Positions 117 through 45,613 of a stretch of 64,000 nt of DNA are shown here, one piece after another; the first letter of the stretch is position 1, and each line of letters begins with the position of its first letter. The notes below the pieces were generated by a model. The model ran no database searches. It was given only the letters and a program-made list of their open reading frames with translations, and had not been told where the DNA came from. Source of the DNA: Spirochaetia bacterium (lineage in GTDB: Bacteria; Spirochaetota; Spirochaetia; Treponematales; Treponemataceae); NCBI GenBank assembly GCA_900767955.1, contig CAAGBC010000049.1, positions 14,992 through 78,991 of the forward strand, in the 5' to 3' direction. The translations under genes and the position numbers were made by a program.

Positions 117-154
<38 letters not shown>

Positions 155-204
155 TAATAGTAGAATTATTTCTTTTTTTGAAAAATTTAAATATATAAAC
201 AATA

Positions 205-254
205 GGCGTTGTGAAATTTGCAAAAAATATTGCAAGTTGTACAACGCCTTTTTT
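205..254 (+). terminator. Hairpin plus T-tract, putative intrinsic terminator or attenuator
   Basis: ggcgttgt (205-212) pairs with acaacgcc (241-248), with a partial inner stem, followed by tttttt (249-254). Confidence 0.45.
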
Positions 255-372
255 GTTGCTTTGGCTACGTTTGTCAATTGAATGAGTAGGCGATAGTCGA
301 TATAACAATGGATTTAGTTTTTCTTAATCAAACTAAAAATAAACAATGATTTTAAAACGAGGAGGAAAAATC

Positions 373-2931
373 ATGAAAAAACTAAAATGTCTTGCCGCGT
401 TTATAATTGTGGCAACATTATTTGGTGGAGTCTTGGGATGTAAACAAGAACCAGAAATCAAGTATGTTGAAGTAGAAAAGCAACCAGATGGCGTTGCTCC
501 TGCTGATGTAACAAATTTAGTTGTTACAAACAAAGACGCAAGTGTTTTACTAACTTGGACAGACGCCACAGACGAAGACATTTACGGCTACGAAGTAAGT
601 TGGAAAACATCTACTGAAAACAGAGCTGCCGCTGCAATGGAATCAAATTCTATAATGGTAGCCCCAGGTGCAAAAGGTTGTTACATTAGCAACTTAACAA
701 ATGGAACAGAATATGCTTTTACAGTAAAATCTGTTGATACAAGCGGAAACAAAAGTGCAGGTGTTACAAAAACAATTACACCAAGCATTATAGAAAAATC
801 ACCACTTGCAATAACTCTTACAGCAAATACAACATCAAAAACAAATCAAAATGTTGTAATTTCTGTAAATGCAACAACAGACAATGCAAGTGAAGTAAAG
901 AAAATTGCTTACAAAGAAGGCACTTTGGCAGATATAGAAAGTGTACTTGCAGGAACAAATATTACAGAAACAAAACAAATTACAGCAACAGAAAATACTA
1001 CATTTACCGTTGCAGTAACAGACACAGCAGGACGCCGTGAACTTGCTTTTGTTACAGTGAATAATATTGATAAAACAGCTCCATCACAAGTTGCAAATGT
1101 CATTCCAATTTATTCAAGAAATAATAACGCAATTAAATTGTCTTGGACAAATCCAGCAGACGAAGATTTTGCAGGAACAGAAATTGTTTATGGCAAAACA
1201 GATAGCGAAGAAACAATAACACTAACTTTTGATAAAAATACAACATCAGCAACAATAAAAAACATTGCTGACGATGATAGTGAATACACAATTGCAATTA
1301 AAACAAAAGATGACCTTGGAAACCTTAGCGAAGCAAAAACAGTTACAGTAGTTGCAGCCACAGGTGCAAAAATTACAAGTGTAAATCTTGATAGAACTCA
1401 CTTAGATTCTATTATGGCAAACCGCAATATTAGCGTAACAATTACCGGAAGTAATTTTGACCTTTTATCAAGTCTTTTGGTACAAGTAACAGATGGCTCA
1501 AAAGCAGAAACCCCAGTAACAGCAACAATCAATAAAGAAACAAATACAGCAACAGCAACAGTTATAGCCCCTGTGCCAGCAAGTCCTACAAACAATGGAA
1601 CAACCTACACTGTAAAAGTAATTGTAGATAGCACAACACCAGCAGAAACAACAGCAGAGTTTGTTGTAAGTTTACCAGCTGATGTAAGATATATTACTTT
1701 AGCACAAACACAAATACCAGTAGGAACAGAAGATAATGTAACAGCTACAATAAAAGGATACAACTTTGATATTCGTGGTGTAACAAAAGTAAAATTACTA
1801 GATTCAAATGGAGATGAAGTAATAGAAAGTACAGTTGAAGTTCCTCTTGAAACAAAAACAAGTGAAACAGAATTTACAGTAGATATTCCTTTACCAACAA
1901 CAGAAGGTGTTTATACAGTTGCAGTATTCTTTGATGATGTAAAAGATACAACTACAACAACACTACAAGTTTACGGAACTCCTATTATTTCTGAAGTTAC
2001 AATTCCTGTTGCAGGAACAAGTTATGGAGGAAATGTATTACCAGTAACAATTAATGGTAAAAATTTTACAGCCCCAGGTGTTACAGCAAGTGGATTTACA
2101 AGCACAGGAGCAACTTTAACTAATGTAACAATTGTAAGTGATACAAAAGTAACAGCAGAAGTAGCTTGCCCTTATGCAGCAGGAACAACAAATGTAACAG
2201 TAAGTTATGGAGATTCTAATACAACAACAACATTAAAAGTAATAGAATCAGTAGCTTCATCTTATGCAGTAGGAGATATTATCTTAACAAATGGCTCAAA
2301 AGTGTCTGTAAATGATGTTGAAACTTATTCACCTGATAACGCAAATAAACCAATAGGTGTAGTTGCAATGATTACTGATGTTTACGGAGTTCCAAACCCA
2401 AAAGTAATAGGCTTACAAAAGTCTGCAAGTGAATTAATGTGGGCACCAGATGATACAACAGGATATAACACAAAGTTTACTAACATAGTTTGTACACCAA
2501 GCAAAAATGGTACAGGTGCAGCATTAACAGCAACTTTTACAGGCGACACAGATGGAAGTGATAATTGGGAAGAAATTTGTGCTGTAGACCCAGAAGGAAC
2601 AGCTGATGCAGCAACAAATTACCCAGCTTTTAATTTTGCAAATACTTATGGAACAACAGCAGGATTAACAGGCACAGATTATGAAAACGGTTGGTATGTA
2701 CCAAGTCTTGCAGAATTATGTGAAGTATACAAAAACAAAGAAGTAATACAAATATCATTAACAAAAGCGAATGGATTTAAAATTGGCACAAGTGCTTACT
2801 GGAGCAGTTCCCAGTTCGCTTCCTACAATGGTGACGCGTACCGAGTGAGTTTCAACGCCGGCTACGTGAGCGGCTTCAGCAAGTACTACAATGTTAATGT
2901 GTTTGTTCTGCAGGCTTTAACAGCAGAGTAA
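373..2931 (+). CDS. tvpA: DGR target: surface lipoprotein (TvpA-like) with tandem Ig/FN3-like repeats and a C-terminal CLec/FGE-type variable domain
   Basis: RBS ggagga 361-366, then ATG at 373 (the ORF track begins 346). Signal peptide MKKLKCLAAFIIVATLFGGVLGC has a lipobox. Thr/Val-rich repeated modules follow. The C-terminal ~40 codons form the VR matched by the TR at 4107-4228. The layout matches the T. denticola TvpA DGR target. Confidence 0.8.
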   Translation: MKKLKCLAAFIIVATLFGGVLGCKQEPEIKYVEVEKQPDGVAPADVTNLVVTNKDASVLLTWTDATDEDIYGYEVSWKTSTENRAAAAMESNSIMVAPGAKGCYISNLTNGTEYAFTVKSVDTSGNKSAGVTKTITPSIIEKSPLAITLTANTTSKTNQNVVISVNATTDNASEVKKIAYKEGTLADIESVLAGTNITETKQITATENTTFTVAVTDTAGRRELAFVTVNNIDKTAPSQVANVIPIYSRNNNAIKLSWTNPADEDFAGTEIVYGKTDSEETITLTFDKNTTSATIKNIADDDSEYTIAIKTKDDLGNLSEAKTVTVVAATGAKITSVNLDRTHLDSIMANRNISVTITGSNFDLLSSLLVQVTDGSKAETPVTATINKETNTATATVIAPVPASPTNNGTTYTVKVIVDSTTPAETTAEFVVSLPADVRYITLAQTQIPVGTEDNVTATIKGYNFDIRGVTKVKLLDSNGDEVIESTVEVPLETKTSETEFTVDIPLPTTEGVYTVAVFFDDVKDTTTTTLQVYGTPIISEVTIPVAGTSYGGNVLPVTINGKNFTAPGVTASGFTSTGATLTNVTIVSDTKVTAEVACPYAAGTTNVTVSYGDSNTTTTLKVIESVASSYAVGDIILTNGSKVSVNDVETYSPDNANKPIGVVAMITDVYGVPNPKVIGLQKSASELMWAPDDTTGYNTKFTNIVCTPSKNGTGAALTATFTGDTDGSDNWEEICAVDPEGTADAATNYPAFNFANTYGTTAGLTGTDYENGWYVPSLAELCEVYKNKEVIQISLTKANGFKIGTSAYWSSSQFASYNGDAYRVSFNAGYVSGFSKYYNVNVFVLQALTAE
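2801..2922 (+). repeat. DGR variable region (VR) within the 3' end of the target gene
   Basis: About 122 bp aligns base-for-base with TR 4107-4228. Roughly 23 of 25 differences fall at TR adenines (A to G, T or C), plus 2 non-A differences. The 3' end gtgtttgttctgcagg is identical in both. Confidence 0.85.
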
Positions 2932-2967
2932 GCGTAGCTTAGTCTGCATTAACTATTAAACTATTTG

Positions 2968-3031
2968 TTCATAAAGTAGCGTACGCTACTTTATGAACTC
3001 GGTGGCGTACGCCACCGAAAAAATTTTTTTT
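2968..3031 (+). promoter_or_regulatory. Two tandem perfect hairpins downstream of VR, then A/T tract: candidate DGR target-recognition hairpin/cruciform and transcription stop
   Basis: ttcataaagtagcg/cgctactttatgaa (2968-2997) and ggtggcg/cgccacc (3001-3016) are perfect palindromes sharing the core gcgtacgc. gaaaaaa and T8 follow (3017-3031). Confidence 0.6.
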
Positions 3032-3045
3032 ATGAAAAGAGGATT

Positions 3046-3552
3046 ATGGGTATGAGTAATATTATTGAATTTGAAGATATTGTATCAAAACCTGTAGGTG
3101 TAACTTATGAAAGAGTTCAAACTCTTGGTATATATTGTTTTCAAGCAGAAAAAAAAGAAAGAAATGCTGCATATTTTTTGCCAAGATTATCTTGGAATAA
3201 AAATATTGATTATCTAAAATCAATTTATTCTGATATAGAAAACGAATCAAATTTACAAGGCAAAGGAATTTACACATCTGTTTGGAATATAGAAAAACAT
3301 TATGATAATATTTCATTAAAAAATGCAGATAAACGACTAGAACATGATATGCATACACTAAGTGCTTTTAAGGCATGGGTAAAAGCAGATTCAAATTTAA
3401 GTGAAGATACCGAACTTCAAATATATGTCTTAGCTAGCGAAAGAGTTTTTCCAAAGTATAAATTTACAGAGTTACAAAATACATCTGCTACAATTTATTA
3501 TAATTGGGATGAAATCTTAGAAAAAACACAAATAGAAAGTAAAGGCAACTAA
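3046..3552 (+). CDS. Hypothetical protein (168 aa) encoded between the DGR target and avd; possible extra DGR accessory gene
   Basis: ORF with RBS aaaagagga upstream. No motif recognised. Its stop overlaps the start of the avd-like ORF. Confidence 0.5.
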   Translation: MGMSNIIEFEDIVSKPVGVTYERVQTLGIYCFQAEKKERNAAYFLPRLSWNKNIDYLKSIYSDIENESNLQGKGIYTSVWNIEKHYDNISLKNADKRLEHDMHTLSAFKAWVKADSNLSEDTELQIYVLASERVFPKYKFTELQNTSATIYYNWDEILEKTQIESKGN

Positions 3553-3553
3553 T

Positions 3554-3928
3554 TTGTCCCTTTACTACGATTTACCAGTATTCAAAGATGTCTACAAAAT
3601 GACACTACGCATATTTGAACTTACATCAAATTTTAGTCGTGAATATAAATTTACCTTAGGTCAAGATTTAAAAAGAGATTGTATTTTACTTGTGCGTAGT
3701 ATTTACAGAGCAAATAAATGCAAAGATAAGGTTTTGTATCTTGAACAATTTTTAGACAGCTTTGAAGTTGTAAAATTAGAAATACGGTTATGTAAAGATT
3801 TAAAATTAATTTCTGTAAAACAACAAGCAGAACTTGTTTTACTTACAGAAAATATAGGAAAACAAATTACTGGGTGGCGTAATGCCCAAGATAAAATTGT
3901 GAATAATCGGGCAATGCCTGATAAATAA
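3554..3928 (+). CDS. avd: Avd-like accessory variability determinant (small basic helical protein)
   Basis: 124 aa, Lys/Arg-rich with predicted helical character. Position between target gene and TR matches canonical DGR order. Start is TTG at 3554 or ATG at 3599. Confidence 0.6.
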   Translation: MSLYYDLPVFKDVYKMTLRIFELTSNFSREYKFTLGQDLKRDCILLVRSIYRANKCKDKVLYLEQFLDSFEVVKLEIRLCKDLKLISVKQQAELVLLTENIGKQITGWRNAQDKIVNNRAMPDK

Positions 3929-3947
3929 ATGCCAGAATTTATATTGC
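3907..3947 (+). repeat. 41-bp direct repeat copy 1 (tcgggcaatgcctgataaataaatgccagaatttatattgc), overlapping the avd stop
   Basis: Exact 41/41 match to 5431-5471. Encodes the C-terminal residues of Avd in one frame. Confidence 0.9.
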
Positions 3948-4106
3948 TACGGTGATATAAAGAGAGCGTGCTTTTGTGTAAAAGCGGCAAAGTCTCCTGC
4001 ATCAAAAATAAACCTTAAACCAAGGAATAGGCAGAAATTGCTTTTTGTAGGGATATAGTTTTTATAAAGAATTCTCTTTGTAAAGTATAAGATTTTGCGA
4101 AAATTG

Positions 4107-4228
4107 AAAGCAGTTCCCAGAGAGCTTCCAACAATAATAACGCGTACCAAGTGAATTTCAACGACGGCAACGTGAACAACAACAACAAGAACAACAATAA
4201 TAATGTGTTTGTTCTGCAGGATTTTACA
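4107..4228 (+). repeat. DGR template repeat (TR)
   Basis: Non-coding, adenine-rich copy of the VR (runs of aac/aat). All but about 2 mismatches to VR lie at TR adenines. Flanked by inverted repeats at 3970-3985 and 4222-4236. Confidence 0.85.
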
Positions 4229-4238
4229 CAAAGCTTTT

Positions 4239-4274
4239 GCCACATAAATTGATATTTGTGTGGCGTTTTTTTTT
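4239..4274 (+). terminator. Intrinsic-terminator-like hairpin immediately 3' of TR and 5 nt before the RT start
   Basis: gccacataaat / atttgtgtggc form an 11-bp stem with one G-U pair and loop tgat, followed by T9 (4266-4274). Confidence 0.55.
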
Positions 4275-4279
4275 AGATT

Positions 4280-5446
4280 ATGGATTTAACATTAGAAGAA
4301 GTTTTTGAAGCCTATTATGAATGTCGAAAAACTAAAAGATATTCAAATGGGGCTTTACAATTTGAACTTAATTTAGAAGAAAATTTAATTCAATTATATT
4401 CTCAATTAATAACTCAAGAATGGCAACCTGGAAAATCAACTTGTTTTATAGTAACAAGACCAGTTCGTCGTGAAATTTTTGCAGCTCCATTTAGAGACCG
4501 AATTGTTCATCATATTTTAATTCGCAGACTTAATTCTACATTTGAAAAATATTTTATTTATGATAGTTATGCATGTCGCAAGCAAAAAGGAACTCATGCC
4601 GCAATAAAAAGGGTTGAGCATTTTATAAAAAGTCAATTAAACAATGGAAAATCAAATGTCTATGTCTTAAAACTTGATATAAAAGGTTTTTTTATGAATA
4701 TTGATAAAAATCTTTTATGGCAAAAGTTGGAAAAATTTATAGATATAAATTACAAAACTGATTCAGTAGATTTTGAAAAATATTTATGTAAACAAATCAT
4801 TTTTAACGACCCAACAAAAAATTGTATGATTCGAAGTCCTTTGTATGAATGGAAGGAACTGCCAAAAGATAAAAGTTTGTTTACAACAAAAGAAAATTGC
4901 GGACTTCCAATTGGAAATTTAACAAGCCAAGTTTTTGCAAACTTTTTTCTATCAGAATTTGATCATTTTATAAAACATACGTTAAAAGTAAAATGTTATG
5001 TGCGTTATGTTGATGATTGTGTTATTATTCATAAAAATAAAGATTTTCTAAAATATATTATAAAAAAGGCTAAAAATTTTTTAGAACAAAAATTAAACCT
5101 TACACTTCATCCAAAAAAAATATATTTGCAATTAGCTCAAAATGGAGTAGCGTTTTTGGGAACTTTTATAAAACCAAATTACACAGTTTGTAGTCATCGT
5201 GTAAAAAATAATTTTGTAGAATCTCTTAAGAAATATGCAACTCTTGCAAATAATCATAAATTATCAAAAGAAGAAAAACAAAATTGTCTTTCTAGCGTAA
5301 ATTCTTATCTTGGAATTATGAGTCATTACAAAACATATAATTTTAGAAAAAAACAAATTTTACGTTATTTTGAAAAATGGCTTAAGAAAAGTTATTGTAT
5401 TCCAGAAAATTGCAAAAAAATAATGAATAAATCGGGCAATGCCTGA
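4280..5446 (+). CDS. DGR reverse transcriptase
   Basis: RT motifs present, including the DGR-specific LPIGNLTSQVFANFF (I/LGxxxSQ in place of the group II QGxxxSP) and YVRYVDDCVII (YxDD). Sits directly downstream of the TR. Confidence 0.9.
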   Translation: MDLTLEEVFEAYYECRKTKRYSNGALQFELNLEENLIQLYSQLITQEWQPGKSTCFIVTRPVRREIFAAPFRDRIVHHILIRRLNSTFEKYFIYDSYACRKQKGTHAAIKRVEHFIKSQLNNGKSNVYVLKLDIKGFFMNIDKNLLWQKLEKFIDINYKTDSVDFEKYLCKQIIFNDPTKNCMIRSPLYEWKELPKDKSLFTTKENCGLPIGNLTSQVFANFFLSEFDHFIKHTLKVKCYVRYVDDCVIIHKNKDFLKYIIKKAKNFLEQKLNLTLHPKKIYLQLAQNGVAFLGTFIKPNYTVCSHRVKNNFVESLKKYATLANNHKLSKEEKQNCLSSVNSYLGIMSHYKTYNFRKKQILRYFEKWLKKSYCIPENCKKIMNKSGNA

Positions 5447-5471
5447 TAAATAAATGCCAGAATTTATATTG
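5431..5471 (+). repeat. 41-bp direct repeat copy 2, overlapping the RT stop
   Basis: Exact match to 3907-3947. Encodes the RT C-terminus (KSGNA*) in a different frame from copy 1. Confidence 0.9.
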
Positions 5472-5643
5472 CACATGTCAGGAAATTAAAAAAAATAGTT
5501 ATTCGTTAGAAATTTTTTTTGTTTATGTGTAAACAATTCTGAATTGCACAAAGGATTGTAGCCACTTGTAAAATGGAAAACGCGTTAAGAAAAATTGTGA
5601 TTAGCAATTTTTTAGTGTTTTCTATTTTATGAAGCGCTTTGAC

Positions 5644-5676
5644 GCGGAATGGCGAAAAGCCTGGTTTTTGCGGTAG
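5644..5676 (+). promoter_or_regulatory. Conserved ~30-nt leader motif, copy 1 (gacgcggaatggcgaaaagcctggtttttgcgg)
   Basis: About 27/31 identical to 39205-39234. Both copies lie 50-110 nt upstream of plus-strand genes. Confidence 0.5.
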
Positions 5677-5699
5677 TAAAAATGTGCCCAAATTATTAA

Positions 5700-8600
5700 T
5701 TGATTGTTAAAAATTTTGTTATGATGGCTTTTTATTTTATCTTCAATTGCTTTATAAAAAATATGGTGTATAATAGAAACAATATGGATATCTCTAATAA
5801 ACTTGAAATTGCAAAAAAATTTATTGAAACATCTAAAAAAAATCTTTGCTTTATTGTAGCTGATAGTCTTGTTTCTCAATGTATTGCAGAAGATATGAAG
5901 GATTCTTACCAAATTATTGATTTGGCAGAAGATTTTACACCTTTTAAGCCTTTTTTGAATTTATTATCCAAAGGTAATCTTCCTGAAAAAAATGTTAGAG
6001 AAAAAACTTATTCCATTCAAACTGAATCTTTTGTTTCATTTTTTAAAACTGGAATGGCAGAAGAACGTTATGATATTCCAATTGATAACGAAGAATTATA
6101 TGAAATAAATCAGTATGTAAAATCAATTGTCGTACTTTTTAAAGAACTTCCTGTTAAAAATTATATTTTTACAAATGCACAAAATATTTTCTCTGATTCA
6201 TTTGCTGTAATTAAAGAATTAGAAAATCATGAATTAGCAAGTAAATTTGTTTTTTGTTTTAATGCTGATGTTACAAATCCTTCTGTTGAAGTTTTAGATT
6301 TTTTGGAAAAAAATACAGAATCAGAAAACTTTATGTATCTTCAAGCTCAGTCTACTACTGCAAATACAGCTCTTGCTTTTGAAAATGAAGAATCTGAAAA
6401 TTTATTGAATGTAAGTCAAGAATTTAAAGAAACAATGATGAATAATTTTGATTTTGTATTTTCATTGTTGCGTAATAATCGTTTGTTTATGTCGTTCAAG
6501 CAGTTGAAAATCTTGATAGCGTGGGTTTCTAAGAATTTTCCTAATATGAATTATTCTGTTTATCAAAAGCGAACCTTGCTTCATGAACTTGCAATTGATT
6601 GTTATGTATGTAAATTGGAAGACGAATCAATTCTTCATTTTAATGATATTATTGAAACTCTTCCTGATGATGATTTTGCACTTTCAGCAGCATATTATTT
6701 AGCTAGAATTTTCTATCTAAAAAAATCTGGTGAATTTGCAAAAAAATATGCTCTTCAAGTTTGGCAACAATTAAACGGAAATGAAGAAAATCCTTATTAT
6801 GCACTTTTGTCTATGTTGGAATTTCAGTTTGTAAAACGCTCCGATGCAAATATTGCAAAAGGAAAGTATATAGAAGCGTTGAAGCAGCTTGAAGCTCACG
6901 GATTTGTAAATAATTATATTGCAACAGGTTTGACTATTCCTTGGAATTTGATTAATACTCCAGATTCTAGACCTCTTATTGAAGATACAATTGATAACTG
7001 TATGCGTATGGCAAAAAAATACGGAAATAATCATTTGTATTCTACTGCTTGCCATTGGAAAGGAATTATTGCTTCTCATTACGGTGAACGCGATGTTGCA
7101 ATGAAATGGTATAACGATTGTAATAAAATACGAACAGAAATTGGAGAAATTGGTCCTCTTATGAATATTCGTAATGGCCTTTCTTATGAATCTTTGTGTC
7201 GTGCTTTATATAAAGATGCTTATGATTTAGTAAATGGAGTTATAAGCAATATTTATAATTTAAACGATTATTCCAGAATTGTAGACTGCTTAAAAAATAT
7301 AAGTTATGCACTTTTTTATGCTCGCCACTATGACATTGCTCATGAAATTTTTTCTTTGTTGTTGCATTTTCTTAGACTTTTTAATATGGAAGAGCAGGCT
7401 TATAATTCATTCTTGCCATCAAGAAGTGATATTTTAATATTGAAGACAATTATTGATTTGGATAGAAAAGATGTAATTCATGCAACTATCAATTTCAATC
7501 AAATTGAATCAACAGTAAATTCTGTTACAATGGAAGAAAAACCTTTAATTCCTTTTATTCGTGCAATTTTGTTAGCAAATGATTCTATGTTTGAAGAATC
7601 TGAAAAAGCTGTTGAATTGTGTGTTCAGGAATTTAAGAAAATTAAAAGTAATCAAACCCACAAAATATGTTTCGTTTATTTTGAATATGCAGTTTTATTA
7701 AAAAGATTAAATCAAATGGAACTTTCTCAGAAATATCTTGATTTAGGATATAATCTTGCAAAAGAAAATAATTTTGCATATTACACAAAAAATAAAGATA
7801 GCGTTTCTGTTGAAGATTATTTAAATGGTTATGAAAAATACGATGAATTAAATATTAATTTGGCTTTCCTTTTAGAAAAAGCAGAAAAGGAAAATCTATT
7901 AACTCAACTTCATAAACGAATTCACGATTACCAATTCTTGAATAAAGTAAAAACAAATAACTTAAGATCTTCTAATCTTAAGAAGTATATTGAAAACACT
8001 GTTTTGTATATTTATGAATATTGTTTTGCAGAATCTGTATTTATTGGTGAACTAACAGACGAAGGAGCAGGAACTCTTTATTCTATTAGTCGTGGAAAAT
8101 CTGTAAATATTTCTTCACAAAAGTGGAAGAAGTTGTTCAAAGAATCTACAAATAAAGAAGTTACTCAATTTGTTTATAAAGAAAAGCAACAACTGTTTTT
8201 TGGTAATATGACTCAATTTGAGTATAAGTTTGGAATTGTTATTATTCCTACTGAACAAAATCCATTTACTAACGAAAGTATTAATACTTTGAATATTGCG
8301 CTTTCTACTATTCAATCACAAATTGTTATTTATAAACAAGATGAAAATCTATTGTTCCTTTCTACAACAGATACTCTTTCATTGTTGAATAATAGACATG
8401 CTTTACAGAAACAACTTCTTGTTGAAGGTGATAGAATTCGTCGTTATGCAAAGCGTAAGTCAACAAAAATTCAAGTTTCTATTGCGTTTATGGATTTGGA
8501 CAACTTTAAATATTATAACGATACATTCGGACATAATGCTGGGGACTTGTTTATTACTTGTTTTGCAAAACTTCTTAAAAATACTTGTCGCCAAGTTGAC

Positions 8601-45244: not shown

Positions 45245-45613
45245 GGGGATGTACAGGTTTCGACGGTTGTGGGAACCCCTGTGCTGCAGGTGAGTGTGAA
45301 GGTGCTCTGAACTGACAAAAAAATAACTGCAAAACGTAAAGAAGACGAAATGTCTGAAAACGAACAGTTCGCTCTTGCTGCGTAAGTAGCTGAGCCAGAA
45401 CTCTTGCTATGCTGTTCCGAAGAGTAGGAAGTTCTGACGCCAACCGGGACTTGGTGTATATTGTTTCTAGCCAATATATACGACATTTAGTTAGAATACG
45501 GAAGAGACGCTTGTAATGCTGCTACCTGTTCCCGACAATTACCTCGCATTACTAAACTTGTAGATGTACTTGGATTACACTTTCGGACGGGAGTTCGATT
45601 CTCCCCATCTCCA
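45245..45613 (+). ncRNA. ssrA: tmRNA (SsrA)
   Basis: 5' ggggatgtacaggtttcgacgg. 3' tRNA-like domain ggacgggagttcgattctccc with acceptor strand catctcc+a. Internal tag reading frame ends ...gaaaacgaacagttcgctcttgctgcgtaa, giving tag ...ENEQFALAA*. Confidence 0.9.

Follow-up and report, generated by a model that had tools for sequence, protein, structure and literature searches.

A chromosomal diversity-generating retroelement in a gut Treponema-like spirochaete, with conserved elements beside its variable and template repeats

We analyzed a 64,000-nucleotide (nt) stretch of contig CAAGBC010000049.1 from the Spirochaetia bacterium assembly GCA_900767955.1 (positions 14,992 to 78,991, forward strand; hereafter the window), in which an initial annotation made from the sequence alone had reported a pair of repeats diverging at adenines. 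This locus is almost certainly a diversity-generating retroelement (DGR) carried on the chromosome of a gut Treponema-like spirochaete, in which a target gene, a 166-amino-acid (aa) open reading frame (ORF166), the accessory gene avd, a structured leader, a template repeat (TR) and a reverse transcriptase (RT) gene follow one another on one strand, and it is canonical and probably active. The element is of Architecture B as defined by Wu et al. (2018), with a target of the CLec2/DUF1566 "category d" (Legionella type): it has the avd-TR-RT core and a variable repeat (VR) in a DUF1566-type domain, and ORF166 lies outside the published architecture. The parts of the cassette needed for the argument are the following.

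373..2931, + strand: target (variable-protein) gene, 852 aa from the ATG at 373, the ORF being open from 346
2803..2896 (may begin at 2801), + strand: mutable part of the VR, encoding ...SSSQFASYNGDAYRVSFNAGYVSGFSKYYNV
2897..2922, + strand: 3' anchor of the VR, resembling an initiation of mutagenic homing sequence (IMH); 2897-2914 are identical to the TR, and 2915 and 2919 are fixed VR-specific bases
3052..3552, + strand: ORF166, 166 aa, acidic (isoelectric point, pI, 5.3), between the VR and avd
3554..3928, + strand: avd (accessory variability determinant), 124 aa, pI 9.3, matching Pfam bAvd and PHROG 3206
4109..4228, + strand: TR, non-coding, 47 A in 120 nt, with the mutagenic template at 4109-4202 and an IMH*-like end at 4203-4228
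4280..5446, + strand: DGR reverse transcriptase, 388 aa, with RVT_1 and bRT homology

The divergence between the two repeats is restricted to one base of one repeat. An ungapped alignment of VR 2801-2922 with TR 4107-4228 (offset 1306) contained 25 mismatches, exactly the number given in the initial annotation, and its tabulation by base was reproduced as well, with 23 mismatches at TR adenines and two elsewhere (4122 G>T and 4225 T>A). With 49 A among the 122 TR bases, the hypergeometric probability of at least 23 of 25 is 2.4e-9; the even spread over all four TR bases that had been named as the refuting pattern is not what re-alignment gave. The substitutions at adenines were A>G in 12 cases, A>T in eight and A>C in three. 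The TR is indeed rich in aac/aat codons (AAC or AAT make up 16 of 43), and in the frame of the ORF at 346-2931 its adenines fall 20 times on codon position 1, 22 times on position 2 and twice on position 3. This gives a capacity of 27 variable codons and ∼1.8e26 possible peptides, in a VR that ends 9 nt before the target stop codon. The TR codon AGA at 4121-4123 can mutate to a stop (TGA), and AAG at 4187-4189 likewise.

The boundaries of the pair needed revision. Independent repeat finding gave it as 2803-2922 and 4109-4228, with 81% identity; extension of the repeat stopped short of positions 4107-4108 (AA vs. GG), and the mismatch at 4106 is at a base other than A, which puts the 5' edge of the repeat at either 4107 or 4109. 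At the other end, an identical segment of 24 nt had been described as an IMH-type anchor. The shared identical segment is there, but the run is 20 nt long (2895-2914 and 4201-4220), and the differences at 4221 and 4225 fall inside the interval first given. Its 20-mer, TAATGTGTTTGTTCTGCAGG, occurs at the VR and the TR only within the 64 kb, against 0.03 occurrences expected by chance. Because all the related strains compared show identical changes at 4221 (A>C) and 4225 (T>A), we regard them as IMH/IMH*-type boundary differences and not as mutagenesis. Most of the 23 adenine mismatches can still be read as products of mutagenesis, two or three being repeat-boundary differences: the mutable part (4121-4200) retains ∼20 adenine substitutions after these are removed, and the positions that vary across strains all lie within repeat positions 13 to 94. 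A quoted VR string, atggtgac, was one base short, as the VR reads AATGGTGAC. A scan of both strands of the window with the TR adenines as wildcards, aimed at further VRs, returned only the TR and one VR.

The protein evidence agrees with this assignment. The RT matched Pfam RVT_1 (9e-22) and PHROG 1423 (RT; 8e-93), and its best solved relative was 8ub7 chain A (E = 2e-28), with group II intron and retron RTs at 2e-8 and weaker. We take 8ub7_A to be the Bordetella phage RT, bRT, because the alignment numbering (R74, and I181 opening IGSLTSQ) agrees with the published description (PMC7826257), which also gives the DGR RT signature as [I/V/L]GxxxSQ instead of QGxxxSP. In the window RT this signature is present as IGNLTSQ at residues 211-217, together with the active site YVDD at 243-246, the catalytic residues D133 and D245-D246, and an arginine, R64, aligned to bRT R74. 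By motif and by closest relative in the PDB, the RT is a member of the DGR clade. The accessory protein of most DGRs is Avd, and the window Avd matched Pfam bAvd at 4e-18 (66.2 bits vs. a cutoff of 40) and PHROG 3206, "Avd protein of DGR", at 8e-23. The TR ends ∼51–52 nt before the RT gene on the same strand (4228 to 4280), an arrangement found in all RT relatives, and an A-biased TR/VR pair of its own is present in each of the ∼20 more distant relatives whose sequence was long enough.

Related strains allowed us to follow the VR against its surroundings. The comparison loci were gut-metagenome contigs encoding exactly the window RT or the window Avd, and among the recovered contigs three allelic arrangements occupy the same chromosomal site. 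Type A is window-like; type B has a shorter target (741–750 aa) and lacks ORF166; and type C (L033-L035 and L037) has two small genes separating the TR from its RT, which is 85% identical. The type C insert is a DUF4160/DUF2442 gene pair placed after the post-TR hairpin, at window position 4289. Four type B loci (L022, L023, L025 and L028) share one TR variant, with L023 one TR base off, and carry four different VRs. In pairwise comparison their 600 nt upstream differ by 0.2–0.5% (5.5–5.8% vs. L028) and their 300 nt downstream show no differences, and their VRs differ at 18–22 of 100 positions, 18–22 of those being TR adenines. Between the window and L036, which has type A flanks, 27 of 29 VR differences are at TR adenines, and flank differences are confined to 1 of 117 and 2 of 300 positions. 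In seven related loci compared with their own TRs, differences were essentially confined to TR adenines; the TR itself, which is non-coding, stayed constant, and independent VRs departed from it at a common set of adenines. Standing in for the amplicon sequencing that the initial annotation had suggested, the comparison gives strong, if indirect, evidence of recent A-templated VR turnover, for the lineage and not for this particular strain.

The VR would diversify part of a surface protein. The target begins with a lipoprotein-like signal, MKKLKCLAAFIIVATLFGGVLGC, ending in LGC, and we read the lipobox from the sequence alone. Further along, Pfam recognized fn3 (4e-13) and DUF4959 (5e-12), while Lcl_C (PF07603) stayed below threshold (2e-4, 22 bits vs. 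a cutoff of 34.9) in the window target and is present in most of its homologs. Searches of PDB sequences with the target C-terminus and with Avd gave no useful matches, and the fold of the former was therefore tested by modeling. The C-terminal 227 aa yielded an AlphaFold2 model with a pLDDT of 94.6 (with 48 homologs), whose best Foldseek match was 4eps, a Bacteroides ovatus fimbrial protein (E = 8e-9), followed by the Legionella Lcl C-terminal domain 8q4e (E = 1e-3) and by many canonical C-type lectins at weak values (E ∼0.2–2). The structure 4EPS serves as the reference for pilin-like DGR variable proteins in a recent gut-DGR study. On the strength of the model, the target C-terminus can confidently be assigned a DUF1566/Lcl_C-type C-type-lectin-like fold carrying the VR.

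The target also differs between strain types beyond its VR. The target body (window 470-2991 vs. L022 2024-4216) is ∼82% identical between types and the flanking genes are 96–99% identical; the types are further distinguished by an indel of ∼340 nt (one fn3-type domain) in the target and by the presence or absence of ORF166. This divergence and the indel indicate that the surface protein varies by allele replacement or recombination besides the DGR. In L001, the closest genome relative, the target (128-3442) has 1104 aa with tandem domain repeats of ∼305 aa and two VRs, one of them internal, and both VRs show A-biased differences from a single TR.

Several observations weigh against a canonical and active element, and they bear mostly on the idea that the cassette once diversified its VR, is now inactive in the window strain and preserves a historical pattern. 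The turnover evidence was obtained between strains of the lineage and not within the window strain. One VR is common to the window and L024, whose sequences agree at 99.99% over 10.3 kb, and another to L025, L026 and L027, which come from three samples; this implies that diversification is not fast on that timescale. The 4122 G>T change is one substitution in the mutable zone at a TR guanine, and the corresponding TR codon (4121-4123) has drifted between strain groups, from AAC in type B to AGC in type C and AGA in the window. The 43-nt repeat pair described below can delete the TR and RT, as appears to have happened in L040. As to canonical features, the Avd scored below the cutoff of NCBIfam DivGenRetAVD (9e-15, 54.9 bits vs. 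a cutoff of 80); the shared IMH-like segment has 50% G+C in a genome of 32% G+C and is not a GC-rich 14-mer as in phage BPP-1; and when 60 nt upstream were folded with 140 nt downstream in search of a priming site or a BPP-1-like cPRT-stop duplex, no consistent pairing across lineages emerged. Against the loss of activity stand intact RT, avd and target ORFs with the catalytic and mutagenesis-linked residues in place, an IMH-like anchor that is perfect over 20 nt, and strains whose flanks are <0.5% apart and whose VRs are wholly different, pointing to recent activity in the lineage. The 4122 change fits A-only mutagenesis only if the TR then read AAC, as type B TRs still do; the window VR codon at this site, TTC, is an A-only product of AAC and, from the sequences, is probably a remnant of the earlier TR state near a poorly overwritten VR 5' end, a variable 5' boundary of VR overwriting having been described by Wu et al. 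(2018). The VR of L036 contains the window-type TR codon AGA, so that the present version of the TR has been used. Taken together, we consider an inactive relic unlikely.

Explanations that dispense with a DGR altogether are far harder to maintain. The genome is AT-rich (32% G+C), and the 82% identity of the target body against 96–99% in the flanks shows that recombination acts at the locus, both of which could suit an ordinary duplicated or paralogous segment shaped by AT-biased mutation or allele recombination and no reverse transcription. Such processes do not account for divergence that is one-directional and base-specific, with A in the TR where VRs have any base, nor for a non-coding, invariant TR from which independent VRs depart at the same adenines; the tabulation by TR base already refutes them, a DGR-signature RT and an Avd gene lie adjacent, and the same pattern recurs in ∼20 related loci. 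We give this explanation next to no weight. It is equally hard to believe that the RT belongs to some other retroelement (a group II intron, a retron or a defense RT) and stands beside the repeat by chance. The weak matches to NCBIfam models for group II RT/maturase, Drt3a, retron and Drt2 that would favor it are sub-threshold, at scores far below the cutoffs (105 vs. 300, 64 vs. 200, and so on), whereas bRT is the best solved relative by 20 orders of magnitude in E-value, the motif is IGxxxSQ and not QGxxxSP, Rfam gave no match to intron RNA or retron msr/msd, and the TR lies 52 nt upstream of the RT in all relatives. That this is a DGR TR/VR pair made by mutagenic retrohoming, as the initial annotation had it, is supported by the A-restricted one-directional divergence, the RT, the Avd, the target fold and the strain data.

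Beyond the cassette itself, conserved elements were found on the target side, 3' of the VR.

2929..2941, + strand: small hairpin TAAGC-GTA-GCTTA, overlapping the target stop codon
2949..2965, + strand: two TTTAACTA-type units, TTAACTAT and TAAACTATT, with 8-nt spacing, a VR-specific flank element
2968..3032, + strand: a pair of strong hairpins (14 bp at 2968-2997; GC-rich, 8 bp, at 2999-3018), then an A6T8 run; DNA fold z = -6.75, with a terminator-like site at 2999-3018

The VR is thus followed by the stop codon, the GTA mini-hairpin, the units TTAACTAT and TAAACTATT, and the two hairpins with the T-run, the last of which probably constitute the target-gene terminator. Two to four TTTAACTA-like units, spaced strictly by 8 nt, come after every VR of the RT clade and after no TR (loci compared: window 2914-2965, L001, L002, L005, L022, L043-L050, L059, L060 and L096). 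The unit consensus is T-T-T-A-A-C-T-A-T, in which AAC is invariant in 27 of 29 units, and the unit in a Bacteroidetes relative reads TTTGACTA. TTAAC was counted 33 times in 12 VR flanks and not once in 11 TR flanks, against a background of 0.06–0.15 per 72 nt, and in 11 of the 12 loci no other 72-nt window matched the density of the VR flank. The first TTTAAC unit is created by the VR-specific bases 2915 and 2919, the VR reading GCTTTAACA (2914-2922) and the TR GATTTTACA. The repeats persist at L001's internal VR, whose flank codes for protein, and at the orphan target of L096, which has no avd, TR or RT nearby; the motif is accordingly a property of the VR, not part of an avd promoter or of a terminator.

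The mini-hairpin is conserved in another way. Its loop is G-T-A in all lineages compared and its stems covary: TAGGC-GTA-GCCTA in L096, GTGCTGC-GTA-GCGGCAC in L044, CACC-GTA-GGTG in L001 and CAGCTGCC-GTA-GGCGGCTG in L050. It lies between the first and the later TTTAAC units in most lineages and after the repeats in L050; in the window it consists of a GTA triloop on a 5-bp stem, with two larger hairpins downstream. A GC-rich inverted repeat downstream of the IMH occurs in only about a third of DGRs. By analogy, the mini-hairpin at 2929-2941 is a candidate counterpart of the target hairpin or cruciform of BPP-1, in which a GC-rich hairpin with a sequence-critical GRNA loop, together with the IMH, is sufficient for targeting (PMC3240598).

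How the repeats might be read is a separate matter. Ten lineages were examined for complements of TTTAACTA (GTTAAA or AGTTAA) across the leader, the TR and the 5' region of the RT, and no match was conserved. RNA-DNA pairing as the reader of the repeats is not supported without such a conserved complement in the DGR RNA region, and recognition by a protein seems the more likely reading. No description of the VR-flank motif was found in the searchable literature. Tentatively, we propose that in this RT clade (spirochaetes, a Bacteroidetes metagenome-assembled genome and others, to ∼44% RT identity) the two to four TTTAACTA units, usually interrupted by the GTA-loop mini-hairpin, could mark the VR as the recipient, acting as the sequence-specific signal by which cDNA integration finds its target and serving as the clade's IMH determinant; that a multimeric protein such as the Avd pentamer, the RT or ORF166 would read them, and not pairing with the DGR RNA; and that the template side could carry a cis-acting RNA scaffold upstream of the TR, where BPP-1 has it downstream; we hold this combined proposal to be possible but doubtful.

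On that template side, the TR is embedded between structured segments.

3929..4108, + strand: structured non-coding leader RNA, ∼180 nt, with covariation in RNAalifold
3938-3948/3951-3961, 3970-3975/3982-3988, 3990-3994/4091-4095, 3995-4001/4046-4052 and 4067-4070/4075-4078, + strand: the five leader helices
4238..4274, + strand: post-TR hairpin with a 12-bp stem and a 4-nt loop, followed by U9, in the form of an intrinsic terminator

The leader between avd and the TR is conserved with a common fold down to ∼60% RT identity. RNAalifold placed 36 pairs, 18 of them with double-sided compensatory changes, in an alignment that represents about five independent lineages and from which the structure itself was derived. 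In this alignment 96.9% of cells were paired, against 43–56% when the partners were slid, and none of 500 shuffles reached the observed value on four of five measures, the exception being further pair types. The many G-U pairs favor a + strand RNA. The leader had no Rfam match and is therefore not a described family; across 2700-5800, Rfam at permissive E-values returned two chance-level matches only (trpB motif and mir-142). A hairpin with a U-tract stands right after the TR in seven lineages, with stems unrelated in sequence; its terminator-like form suggests a discrete leader-TR RNA and attenuated RT expression.

A long direct repeat connects the leader with the end of the RT gene.

3905..3947, + strand: 43-nt perfect direct repeat, copy 1, spanning the avd stop codon and the leader start
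5430..5472, + strand: 43-nt direct repeat, copy 2, spanning the RT stop codon in another reading frame than copy 1

This repeat, AATCGGGCAATGCCTGATAAATAAATGCCAGAATTTATATTGC, brackets the leader, TR and RT, and is present at both sites in all type A and type B strains. No such bracketing of TR and RT was found in relatives at ≤81% RT identity, which confines it to the species-level group of the window. The 3' end of copy 1 forms the 5' arm of leader helix H2, copy 2 has no partner arm, and copy 2 marks the end of homology to L001. Considering also that the core GCCAGAATTT is single-copy upstream of the TR in L043, L002, L044, L047 and L049, copy 1 is ancestral and copy 2 a lineage-specific partial duplication. 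In L040, a contig of 874 nt, avd is joined to the GGDEF flank (3947 to 5473) through one copy of the repeat, an apparent 1.5-kb deletion of TR and RT or, alternatively, an assembly artifact of a single low-coverage MEGAHIT contig. A search for more such deletion alleles via the downstream GGDEF protein found only a window-like contig, leaving L040 as the sole example. A promoter scan gave weak 9-of-12 matches only, among them one within each copy of the 43-nt repeat, and is uninformative at 32% G+C.

ORF166 may be an additional component. Its 16 homolog clusters are all unannotated and it matched no family; its fold is predicted to be PUA-like (ASCH/YTH/EVE). PUA-like folds are beta-barrels with a pocket that binds nucleic acids or modified bases. 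L088 and L089 contain an HRDC-type DGR with an FGE-sulfatase-type target, and there an ORF166 homolog is found between VR and TR; all 25 mismatches of that TR/VR pair are at TR adenines. Homologs also follow FGE-sulfatase-type proteins in L090, L094 and L095, with no RT within 5 kb, and in L096 the preceding protein agrees at its C-terminus with the window TR in 59 of 68 non-A positions; two sampled contexts of the family showed no DGR feature. In the contexts sampled, members of the family thus accompany variable-protein genes, in two target classes and with two accessory types. As described by Wu et al. (2018), CH1 genes encode acidic proteins of 160–169 aa without motifs and occur only in DGRs lacking avd, HRDC and MSL. 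Compared by published description only, ORF166 is similar to CH1 in size (166 aa) and acidity (pI 5.3 vs. 4.7), but it co-occurs with avd in the window and with HRDC in L088, contrary to that description. Our literature search for a link between PUA-like (ASCH/EVE/YTH) proteins and DGRs found nothing relevant.

Joining these elements, the following sequence of events can be envisaged. A + strand RNA comprising the leader, TR and post-TR hairpin would be transcribed, as conservation and covariation suggest. The RT, together with pentameric Avd, would copy the TR into cDNA and misincorporate opposite template adenines, an activity predicted by homology; residues linked in bRT to adenine mutagenesis are present in the window RT. 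At the target gene's 3' end, the cDNA would then take the place of the VR (2803-2896), anchored by the 20-nt IMH-like segment, and the VR rather than the TR may be chosen via elements present at the VR only, namely the bases at 2915 and 2919 that create TTTAAC, the GTA-loop hairpin and the TTTAACTA repeats spaced by 8 nt. The outcome is seen in the strain comparison: only codons with TR adenines change, mostly AAC/AAT, and the scaffold residues and the TR stay constant. Up to 27 codons would thereby be varied on the C-type-lectin fold's ligand-binding face in a probable surface lipoprotein.

As a DGR, this locus is one more among many thousands cataloged, and its description would improve the annotation of the RT and Avd, which public records name "hypothetical protein" and "four helix bundle protein". 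It is a good natural example, with an intact cassette, a repertoire of ∼1e26 peptides and wild strains in which VR turnover can be read against near-identical flanks. The by-products, all of them computational predictions, seem more useful than the DGR finding itself: for the VR-flank TTTAACTA repeats, the structured leader upstream of the TR and the PUA-like ORF linked to target genes, our checks turned up no earlier description. The VR-only motif and the covarying leader provide testable handles, outside the Bordetella model, on two steps that are poorly understood, the former for how cDNA is directed to the VR and the latter for which RNA elements RT-Avd needs, and the PUA-like protein family, if the computational prediction holds, would supply a new candidate for an accessory factor. 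Spirochaetia/Treponema metagenome-assembled genomes from animal guts are the nearest genomes, and the remainder of the window is ordinary-looking chromosome, with genes for a GGDEF protein, PEPCK, acetate kinase and tmRNA. The tmRNA gene (45245-45613; tag peptide AKRKEDEMSENEQFALAA) is unrelated to the DGR.

Among known systems, the DGR of Bordetella phage BPP-1 (mtd-avd-TR-brt) resembles the window element in the gene order target-avd-TR-RT, in a bRT-homologous RT that has IGxxxSQ, a counterpart of R74 and YxDD, in a bAvd-family accessory protein, and in AAY codons that undergo A-to-N rewriting at the C-terminal end of a protein with a C-type-lectin fold. Both also have a shared 3' anchor with IMH/IMH* differences and a hairpin downstream of the VR. 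In BPP-1 the TR comes directly after avd, a 140-nt structured spacer lies downstream of it and an Avd-binding stem-loop follows the TR (10.1101/2023.10.23.563531); the window has a stem-loop at that same site, right after its TR, but its structured segment is the leader of ∼180 nt between avd and TR, and its TR-RT gap is 51 nt and ends in a U-tract. The window DGR is chromosomal whereas that of BPP-1 is phage-borne, the loop of the target hairpin is GTA instead of GRNA, and the 8-nt-spaced TTTAACTA repeats of the VR flank are not described for BPP-1. Finally, the window has the extra 166-aa ORF and a target domain of the DUF1566 type, not Mtd.

The Legionella pneumophila DGR (LdtA) shares with the window the Avd-TR-RT core and a predicted surface lipoprotein with the VR in a DUF1566-type C-type-lectin variant. 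The window lacks a MutS-like (MSL) gene and differs, by description, in its fn3/DUF4959 N-terminus, host phylum and cis elements. The Treponema denticola DGR (TvpA) likewise has a spirochaete host and predicted surface lipoproteins with a C-terminal C-type-lectin-fold VR, but an HRDC gene overlaps its RT (Architecture C) and its targets are of the FGE-sulfatase type (CLec1), in contrast to the Avd and DUF1566-type target of the window. A DGR of that type was considered for the window and rejected, as no cassette protein matched HRDC or FGE-sulfatase. The HRDC-type spirochaete DGR of L088 nevertheless has a member of the ORF166 family between its VR and TR. Compared with the type V pilus tip DGRs of Bacteroides, the window differs in RT lineage and host phylum and in a target that has a lipoprotein-type signal and fn3 and is without pilin domains, but it shares with them a gut commensal setting, and the structure 4EPS is the best structural match of its variable domain.

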